DNA from: a virus
Direction: 5' to 3' (one strand)
DNA: 64,000 nt
Virus record (IMG/VR): IMGVR_UViG_3300037307_000181
Location: 2,523 to 66,522 of that record
Shown: positions 57,330-58,175 of the stretch, one piece after another
Layout of the letters: each line of letters starts with the position of its first letter
How positions within the stretch are numbered: position 1 is the stretch's first letter
Made by a program: the position numbers and the translations under genes
Notes under the pieces: generated by a model
The model's database searches: none
What the model was told of the DNA's origin: nothing
The model's input: the letters and a program-made list of their open reading frames with translations, nothing else

Positions 57330-58175
57330 AGCTGGCAGGGGTTGTTGCAGACCCAGGCTGTGAGCTAATAACCACAGCCTAATGCCAGTGGAGTAAGGAG
57401 CTTCTGGTCTCTTAGATAAACCCAGTAATGGGATAAAGGATTGGTGTCTACGCTGATCCGCATCGCAAGATGTCAACCAGGTGAACTGCTCGACACACTC
57501 TACCGACTGCTAATGGCGTATGCTGAGGCAAGGGATGGGGTGTCCACTGAAAAGGTGGTGAGGCTGAGAGGTCAATACATGAGGGCAGGGAGCACAGCAG
57601 TAGTTCTTGGCGGGACTAGCCTGTGTGAAGTTCCAGGCAACTACCAGTGATGGGGTTGTCGGAGGAATGTAGATGAGTAGGGTCGCCAGCCTGAAACATC
57701 AACGGTAGGGTGTGGTCAAGGTCAGTATAAAGGCTGATACAACCGGACAGGGTACATCCTGCGTCAAGTAGAAAACCTGGGTTCAACTCCCAAATGATAA
57801 GACTATATATTATACATGGATAACCACGAACCCCTGTCGGTAGAGCCTACGATAGATCGCTCTTGTCCTGGTCACAGGAACGGTGTTGCGGAAACAACAC
57901 TGATGTGCTAACGGTCTCAGGTGATACTTCGTCTAGCTAACGGGGTAGCTCAGGGGAAACGGGTGCAGACAAGTAGGCGGCGCAAGCCTCAAAACAACCT
58001 CAGATGTGTGGCAGACGCATCAAGAAGGAACTCAAAAGACTGAAAGCAACTAGGTCATAGAGACTGCGAGTGAAGCTGTACGCTGCTGGTGGAAACATCA
58101 GTGGGGCTAAACCTGGGACTGTGATGAGTAGCCTGGGTTACGGTGCAGCGATATGAGGATGGCTACAACTCGTAA
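57330..58175 (+). ncRNA. candidate large (~850 nt) structured ncRNA
   Basis: No credible ORF; dense hairpins with GNRA loops and a T-loop motif; lies between a promoter and tRNA-Trp. Confidence 0.7.

Follow-up and report, generated by a model that had tools for sequence, protein, structure and literature searches.

A candidate large structured non-coding RNA within the tRNA array of an uncultured lake phage

An ORF-free stretch in a phage tRNA island

The window analyzed here is a 64,000-nt stretch of DNA, bases 2523-66522 of the 92-kb IMG/VR virus record IMGVR_UViG_3300037307_000181, which CheckV rates as complete. The record derives from an uncultured phage whose source habitat is a lake (freshwater). 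Genes for a terminase, a portal protein, a capsid protein and a ribonucleotide reductase were recognized, and no cultured relative was found, the top terminase identity among GenBank phages being 27%. Using ARAGORN and cmscan with Rfam models, we located 32 tRNA genes and one transfer-messenger RNA (tmRNA) gene in the window, with the majority of the tRNA genes in a co-oriented island at 56229-62762. Within this island, between a gene for an HNH endonuclease (56649-57227) and the gene for tRNA-Trp (58185-58258), lies a stretch of about 850 nt without sizeable open reading frames (ORFs), which we consider here as the candidate gene of a large structured RNA read from the plus strand at approximately 57321-58174. 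The phage genome holds a single copy of it. A preliminary description of the locus had pictured the stretch as ORF-free and packed with helices, downstream of a promoter, and as encoding either an RNA of the GOLLD size class or a new giant non-coding RNA.

Relatives of the stretch and pattern of conservation

A blastn search with the stretch against 50,697 phage records from GenBank returned no similar DNA. Contigs about 90% identical to it were found in two sediment metagenomes of other studies, referred to here as X2 (sediment) and X3 (freshwater sediment). X2 is a single 756-nt contig that runs across 57411-58163 and differs from the window by 76 substitutions and 5 gap positions; its library is labelled metatranscriptomic and flagged as "probably DNA", and we did not count it as evidence of expression. 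X3 consists of two contigs, covering 57355-57583 and 57746-58174. Its similarity to the window ends at 58174, about 10 nt short of tRNA-Trp; past this point, approximately 12 divergent nucleotides are followed by ...ATAGGGT, the start of tRNA-Trp, so that the order of the candidate RNA and then tRNA-Trp is common to X3. Exact-pattern scans yielded only two 19-nt chance matches among viral contigs (six patterns), 11 matches, all by chance, among metagenome contigs, and none among genome contigs; near relatives are possibly absent from these collections, and the negatives therefore carry little weight. The source run of the phage itself, X1, gave no matching contig either, a negative that can be false.

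The differences between X2 and the window were listed for 57411-57818 (40 of the 76 substitutions), a list that we took as complete for that interval and from which this part of X2 was reconstructed by a script. Across 57411-57772, X2 carries 25 substitutions (6.9%) and no insertion or deletion (indel), and two blocks of 58 nt and 55 nt are entirely unchanged. The next 46 nt form an AT-rich linker (Table 1) that is about five times as diverged as its flanks and in which X3 shows many small deletions. Considering that this short segment has changed about five times faster and has gained indels, the sequences on either side of it are taken to be constrained. The remaining 3' domain differs from X2 by about 36 substitutions (approximately 10%, obtained by subtraction), making the 5' half the better conserved of the two, and three single-base indels are listed for it across X2 and X3 (57975, 58032 and 58118); every listed indel in either conserved half involves one base only. 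In other words, conservation takes the form of two blocks joined by a variable linker.

Among more distant phages, the nearest relatives in IMG/VR, as judged by their terminases, are 59-69% identical; two of these genomes are complete, and one of the two has an array of 26 tRNAs. The large gaps in the tRNA arrays of these relatives hold ORFs; in the 26-tRNA array (38000-49000, reverse strand, of the relative G002), for instance, the two gaps, each about 1.15 kb long, are occupied by ORFs (286 and 372 aa) instead of a large RNA.

Non-coding character

The claim that the stretch is free of ORFs was borne out, as the longest frame within 57230-58184, counting both strands, is 69 aa. Comparison of the ORFs with Pfam and PHROGs gave no match, and two read-throughs of the longest frames had no relative in a collection of 5.8 billion proteins. 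The G+C content of the stretch is 0.50-0.54, compared with 0.37-0.42 in the coding DNA directly upstream.

If the stretch encoded one or more small proteins, the 69-aa frame (57441-57650) would be the obvious candidate, and it is indeed uninterrupted in X2. However, its TTG start codon is lost there, and 11 of its 19 changes are non-synonymous, many of them radical, with 8 synonymous changes against 6 expected by chance (P = 0.23), so that a synonymous excess is absent. The substitutions in X2 are spread evenly over the three codon phases (9/8/8), and the ORFs of the 3' half are hit by the single-base indels. Conservation of a coding type, which the preliminary description had named as grounds against an RNA, is not seen in this part of X2, and, with no family or relative detected for any of the ORFs, we consider a protein-coding function highly improbable. 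The stretch is a real, conserved and non-coding element.

Selection on base pairing in the 5' half

To examine the structure of the putative RNA, a fold was predicted from the window sequence alone and compared with the substitutions in X2 across 57411-57772. Of the 19 substitutions that fall at paired positions of the plus strand, 16 preserve a standard pair and 3 disrupt one, compared with 10.5 breaks under a null in which the same base changes are put at random positions of the same base (P = 0.0002-0.0006). Weighting by ensemble pair probabilities gave the same picture, with 3.15 broken pairs where 9.64 would be expected (P < 0.0005 in the local folding context and in that of 57322-58175; P = 0.0005 in that of 57226-58184). 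Three pairs are compensated on both sides, where 0.22 would be expected (P of about 0.001), and the other changes that preserve pairing exchange a wobble pair for a Watson-Crick pair or the reverse. The minus strand gave a different result: 14 substitutions fall at paired positions there, and 11 of them disrupt pairing (P = 0.97). Since the minus strand behaves as expected by chance, the signal is strand-specific, in agreement with the direction of the promoter and the tRNA genes. These substitution patterns indicate that base pairing of a plus-strand RNA is under selection in the 5' half, and we regard this evidence for selected RNA structure as good though thin.

The 5' half contains nine helices with pair-preserving changes and two conserved GNRA hairpins, with GUAA and GCAA loops. 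GNRA-capped hairpins are also more frequent in the stretch than expected (4 against 0.78; P = 0.004). The branched subdomain at 57486-57588 shows four pair-preserving changes (57500, 57501, 57511 and 57584) and a single break, at the closing pair of a GAGA loop (57570). Several of the hairpins listed in the preliminary description recur in the predicted folds, namely CTGGCA/TGCCAG with AGGCTGTG/CACAGCCT, CCCA-GTAA-TGGG and CATC-GCAA-GATG in the 5' half, as well as TCCTG/CAGGA, GTGTTG/CAACAC and CTGGTG-GAAA-CATCAG. Others did not survive the comparison with X2: the GTAGTT/AACTAC and GCCTG/CAGGC pairings are broken at 57602 and 57621, exactly where the alternative hairpin at 57592-57626 is compensated; GACAC/GTGTC competes with a hairpin that is strengthened by two changes in X2; and the proposed T-loop hairpin at 57776-57790 sits in the hypervariable, indel-rich linker, where its T-loop-like sequence is not conserved.

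Table 1. Features of the candidate RNA locus, with positions in the window and the basis of each assignment
Feature	Position	Strand	Basis or remark
Perfect sigma-70 promoters	56317-56346, 57189-57217, 62456-62484, 63789-63816	+	12/12 matches, tRNA island
Sigma-70 promoter of the candidate, TTGACA-17-TATAAT, TG before -10	57189-57217	+	12/12 consensus match
AT-rich 5' leader, 37 nt, G+C 0.24	57226-57262	+	Sequence composition
Minimal tRNA-like element, 58 nt	57263-57320	+	Read from sequence
5' domain, multi-hairpin, G+C 0.52	57321-57772	+	Predicted fold and X2 substitutions
Nested hairpin CTGGCA/TGCCAG around GGGGT/ACCC and AGGCTGTG/CACAGCCT	57333-57388	+	Minimum free energy prediction only
CCCA-GUAA-UGGG hairpin, GNRA loop	57421-57432	+	Invariant in X2
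9-bp hairpin GGATTGGTG-TCTA-CGCTGATCC	57438-57459	+	X2: U.G to C-G (57442), G.U to A-U (57443)
GCATC-GCAA-GATGT hairpin, GNRA loop	57460-57473	+	X2: C-G to U.G at 57464
Branched subdomain closed by CTGCTC/GGGCAG	57486-57588	+	Includes 57512-57569, 100% conserved in X2
Two-part stem-loop (57592-97/57621-26; 57601-07/57612-18)	57592-57626	+	Two doubly compensated pairs; G.U to G-C at 57626
Stem-loop GTTCC/GGAAT, GGCAACT/GGTTGTC	57630-57668	+	Two pair-preserving changes (57666, 57668); terminal pair 57634/57664 lost
Long stem GTAGGGTGTG/TACATCCTGC bearing hairpin 57722-57737	57705-57762	+	A-U to U-A (57724/57735); includes X2-invariant blocks
Doubly compensated pairs in X2	57602/57617, 57724/57735, 57597/57621	+	A-U to C-G, A-U to U-A and G-C to U.G, respectively
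AT-rich hypervariable linker, G+C 0.33	57773-57818	+	X2: 15 substitutions and indels in 46 nt (33%)
3' domain, G+C 0.52	57819-58174	+	Structure predicted only; ends where X3 similarity ends
Predicted 3'-domain hairpins: TCCTG/CAGGA; GTGTTG/CAACAC; AGCTA/TAGCT; 9-bp GAAA-capped stem	57866-79; 57883-57900; 57935-50; 58083-58104	+
Short AT-rich spacer	58175-58184	+	Differs in X3; precedes RNase P site of tRNA-Trp
tRNA-Trp(CCA)	58185-58258	+	ARAGORN and Rfam; also 3' of the stretch in X3

Comparison with known RNA families

When the window was searched with cmscan for all 4227 families of Rfam 15 at the gathering threshold, only the tRNAs, the tmRNA and one unrelated EGFOA motif were found. For the stretch itself (57322-58182), searches at E ≤ 10 took in a 1.9-kb region, the stretch by itself and, using the laxest filters, either half by itself, a limit that by our own estimate corresponds to about 20-25 bits. 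Nothing real emerged: the sole match, at 19.5 bits, was a chance hit to a 40-nt frameshift-site model that has a gathering score of 40. GOLLD matched neither the whole stretch nor its 5' or 3' half at this limit (no GOLLD positive control was run), and the ROOL model (RF03087), run on the whole phage and two relatives, likewise found nothing at E ≤ 10, nor did it in the control genomes. At the same limit, no match inside the stretch was obtained for group I and group II introns, RNase P RNA, OLE, raiA, HEARO, tmRNA or tRNA, and the group-II-D1D4-1 model (RF01998) was negative as well. GOLLD, ROOL and OLE are all families of Rfam (PMC12286853). The stretch is not a detectable member of GOLLD, ROOL, OLE, raiA, the group I or II introns, RNase P or HEARO, and of the options offered by the preliminary description, a new RNA is favoured over a known family.

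Some weaker resemblances were considered and rejected. Short segments reminiscent of P4 and P10-12 of RNase P RNA came with no model match and no consistent P4 pairing, and a tRNA hidden in or upstream of the linker received no call from ARAGORN or Infernal, its acceptor pairing being impossible to draw. The classic 11-nt GAAA-tetraloop receptor is absent from the stretch.

In the large phage RNAs GOLLD and ROOL, which are frequently encoded near tRNA islands, a variable, disordered linker lies between conserved regions (PMC12286853). GOLLD RNAs measure about 800 nt or more, occur in phages and prophages and were first seen in lake and marine metagenomes; the linker between their 5' and 3' regions is disordered and sometimes holds tRNAs, and their 3' region is universally conserved (PMC12286853). 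ROOL, likewise an RNA of phages and prophages that often lies beside tRNA islands, has no known protein partner, and both RNAs were recently shown to form RNA-only nanocages, that of GOLLD being a homo-oligomer (14-mer) (PMC12286853).

Our candidate is like GOLLD in size, in its site in a phage tRNA array, in its freshwater origin and in its organization as two blocks with a variable linker. Its location and length also correspond to those of GOLLD, as it is found in a phage record, reaches from a tRNA-like element to tRNA-Trp and is ORF-free for about 850 nt. It differs from GOLLD in lacking an Rfam match even in its 3' half, the part that is universally conserved in GOLLD, and in its balance of conservation, the 5' half of the candidate being the better kept. 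With ROOL it has in common the nature of a large phage RNA near tRNA islands and the layout of two regions and a variable linker, but ROOL is shorter (its model has 574 positions) and its model is without a match in the phage or the two relatives.

These similarities in size class, tRNA-island site and layout, together with the lake habitat in common with GOLLD, could mean that the stretch belongs to GOLLD or ROOL but has diverged too far for the Rfam covariance models to recognize it. We find this very improbable, given that neither the whole nor either half matches at the permissive limit, that the ROOL model, applied to the phage directly, found nothing, and that the 3' region of GOLLD, being universally conserved, ought to be detectable. 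The idea of a GOLLD-size or new giant RNA thus holds in that the stretch is non-coding, shows selected pairing in its 5' half, is of the right size class and lies in a tRNA array; its GOLLD variant found no match. Tests for membership of either family were negative; the candidate may resemble GOLLD and ROOL in its way of working, and it probably constitutes a separate, new family of large phage RNA encoded beside tRNA arrays.

Promoter and predicted processing signals

The upstream promoter is present at the position given in the preliminary description, and tRNA-Trp follows at 58185. The promoter is a 12/12 match to TTGACA-17-TATAAT with a TG ahead of the -10 element. The 3' end of the HNH gene runs into it, and transcription would be expected to start near 57224-57226. 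Four such perfect sites lie within 8.5 kb, all on the plus strand, where by our own estimate about 0.003 would be expected by chance; this suggests that the island is strongly expressed by the host RNA polymerase, as several units. No plus-strand terminator is predicted between the promoter at 57189-57217 and the tRNAs, and the interval 57321-58174 revealed neither a promoter or terminator of its own nor a tRNA-like processing signal.

About 38 nt past the predicted transcription start, a minimal tRNA-like element begins. It combines an acceptor stem of seven perfect base pairs (CACCTCA/TGGGGTG) with a D-arm-like hairpin and a T arm whose loop reads TTCGAGT, and it is devoid of an anticodon arm. 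Its acceptor and T-arm pairings are present in the minimum free energy (MFE) structure of 57226-57410, which has a z-score of -2.52. The element is called neither by ARAGORN nor by the Rfam tRNA model, and the contigs of X2 and X3 begin 3' of it (at 57411 and 57355, respectively). The motif TGATGGGGT from this region recurs at 57648.

From this layout, we infer that the RNA is produced from the tRNA polycistron; its existence as a single molecule and any function that it may have are inferred as well. A polycistronic tRNA transcript made from the promoter at 57189-57217 would carry the RNA as its first large element. The ends of the RNA would then be set by RNase P together with trimming of 3' ends, at the tRNA-like element (57263-57320) and at tRNA-Trp (58185): the former would be a putative 5' signal for releasing the large RNA, and cleavage at the 5' end of tRNA-Trp would produce its 3' end.

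A different role for the same arrangement would be that of a long cis-acting leader of the tRNA operon, controlling the transcription, processing order or stability of the tRNAs downstream instead of acting in trans as an RNA of its own. The stretch does separate a promoter from the leading tRNA of a long co-oriented array, with no predicted terminator intervening, and conserved structure would be equally expected of a leader. However, a tRNA-like element ahead of the stretch suits excision, the perfect promoter at 62456 has a tRNA gene within about 45 nt, which shows that a leader is not needed for tRNA expression, and typical operon leaders of bacteria and phages are far shorter. We therefore give this explanation little credence.

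A comparable route is familiar from phage T4, whose species 1 and species 2 RNAs (rnaC and rnaD) are stable, are co-transcribed with phage tRNAs and are released by tRNA-processing enzymes, just as we propose for the candidate. The T4 RNAs are about 120-140 nt long and tRNA-like, whereas the candidate exceeds them about sixfold in length and contains no tRNA-like match.

A single large RNA and its alternatives

On balance, we lean towards the interpretation that 57321-58174 (approximately, plus strand) encodes a new large structured non-coding RNA that exists as a single molecule of about 0.75-0.85 kb. It would fold as two conserved multi-hairpin halves bearing GNRA loops (57321-57772 and 57819-58174), joined by the AT-rich linker.

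Several observations weigh against this interpretation. The picture of a stretch packed with helices holds insofar as most of the complements listed in the preliminary description exist and many are part of MFE folds, but neither their density nor their stability stands out: there are 4 perfect hairpins with a stem of at least 5 bp, compared with 4.6 in dinucleotide shuffles, and in the comparison of fold stability with shuffled controls that the preliminary description had called for, the whole stretch did not come out clearly better (z = -1.40; 3 of 20 shuffles fold equally well). The parts 57411-57772 and 57815-58184 are weak in this respect as well (z = -1.33 and -0.59, respectively), and only 57226-57410 goes as low as the -2.52 given above; the z-score of the reverse strand is +0.56. 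One of the GNRA hairpins, that with the GAGA loop (57562-57573), loses its closing pair in X2. Perfect long-range complements of 9-11 nt are about as numerous as expected by chance, and in one case (57498-57507/57836-57845) the X2 substitutions favour a competing local helix. No helix joining the two halves is supported. The support from the comparative test is limited by its reliance on one relative, reconstructed from a table and for 57411-57818 only. Finally, the two nearest complete relatives have no DNA match to the stretch and no comparable ORF-free stretch, and the element is for this reason confined to a narrow lineage, namely one phage lineage and two environmental relatives.

The absence of the stretch from the nearest complete relatives, the weak MFE z-scores and a test based on one relative and predicted structures are also what one might see if the stretch were a non-functional or decaying spacer, such as tRNA-gene debris or an old insertion, with its conservation due to close kinship and its pairing pattern to chance or a bias of the test. 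We judge this unlikely, because the substitutions preserve pairs on one strand only and far more often than the null predicts, the flanks of the linker are constrained, changing about five times more slowly than the linker itself, no tRNA-like match is found inside even at E ≤ 10, and a perfect promoter lies directly upstream.

More serious, though still doubtful in our view, is the possibility that the stretch gives rise to several independent small structured RNAs, as processing products or tRNA-operon spacers, cut for example at the AT-rich linker. The comparative support is restricted to local hairpins and one branched subdomain of approximately 100 nt, the linker at 57773-57818 is hypervariable, and the MFE stability of the stretch as a whole is unremarkable, all of which would suit small RNAs. 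Against this, a single X2 contig spans both halves and the linker (a contiguity of sequence, not of RNA), the search for promoters, terminators and tRNA-like processing signals within the stretch was negative, and a variable linker inside one RNA is found in GOLLD and ROOL too.

As for what a single large RNA might do, by analogy with GOLLD and ROOL only, it could act during infection as a self-assembling RNA particle or scaffold, tied to the tRNA and translation module of the phage. In its most specific form, this analogy would make the candidate a third, sequence-unrelated class of giant phage RNA that is excised from a tRNA polycistron and whose halves assemble into a homo-oligomeric particle, with the linker inside; we put this forward as a speculative possibility that is rather unlikely to be correct in full.

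If the candidate is indeed a large RNA without detectable sequence relationship to the abundant GOLLD and ROOL in the same niche and with the same layout, this would point to convergent evolution, and if it is a third particle-forming class, it would suggest that phages have evolved RNA particles at tRNA islands repeatedly. The role of such RNAs in a phage equipped with a tRNA set of its own could then be studied in an independent system. The clear promoter and the predicted flanking processing signals should make it easy to express and test, while its narrow distribution limits the generality of the finding.

Other features of the island and the window

The HNH endonuclease encoded upstream of the candidate (56649-57227, plus strand) is a free-standing protein of 192 aa with a Pfam HNH domain and N-terminal CxxC zinc-finger repeats. 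Its gene is flanked by tRNA-Ala and by the promoter of the candidate RNA, with the promoter falling within its final codons. As a test for a mobile cassette composed of the HNH gene and the RNA, relatives of the endonuclease were sought in IMG/VR by a peptide-pattern search, and none was found.

The EGFOA RNA motif (RF02955) detected by cmscan lies at 26195-26307 on the minus strand, in the gap separating the terminase ORF from the next ORF of the structural module, and scores 42.9 bits against a gathering score of 37.7. The phage-encoded tmRNA (39665-39969, plus strand) has an unusual tag peptide, AKPVSFTWQDILALPVAGEPALVSAY; a tmRNA is also present in the relative G004, about 290 nt upstream of its tRNA-Trp.

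Long gaps also occur elsewhere in the tRNA array, at 59175-59750 and 59826-60296 (plus strand). The former holds an 81-aa ORF with a zinc-ribbon-like spacing (CPECG...C..C) and the start of an 83-aa ORF that extends into tRNA-Val; the latter could harbour further RNA elements.

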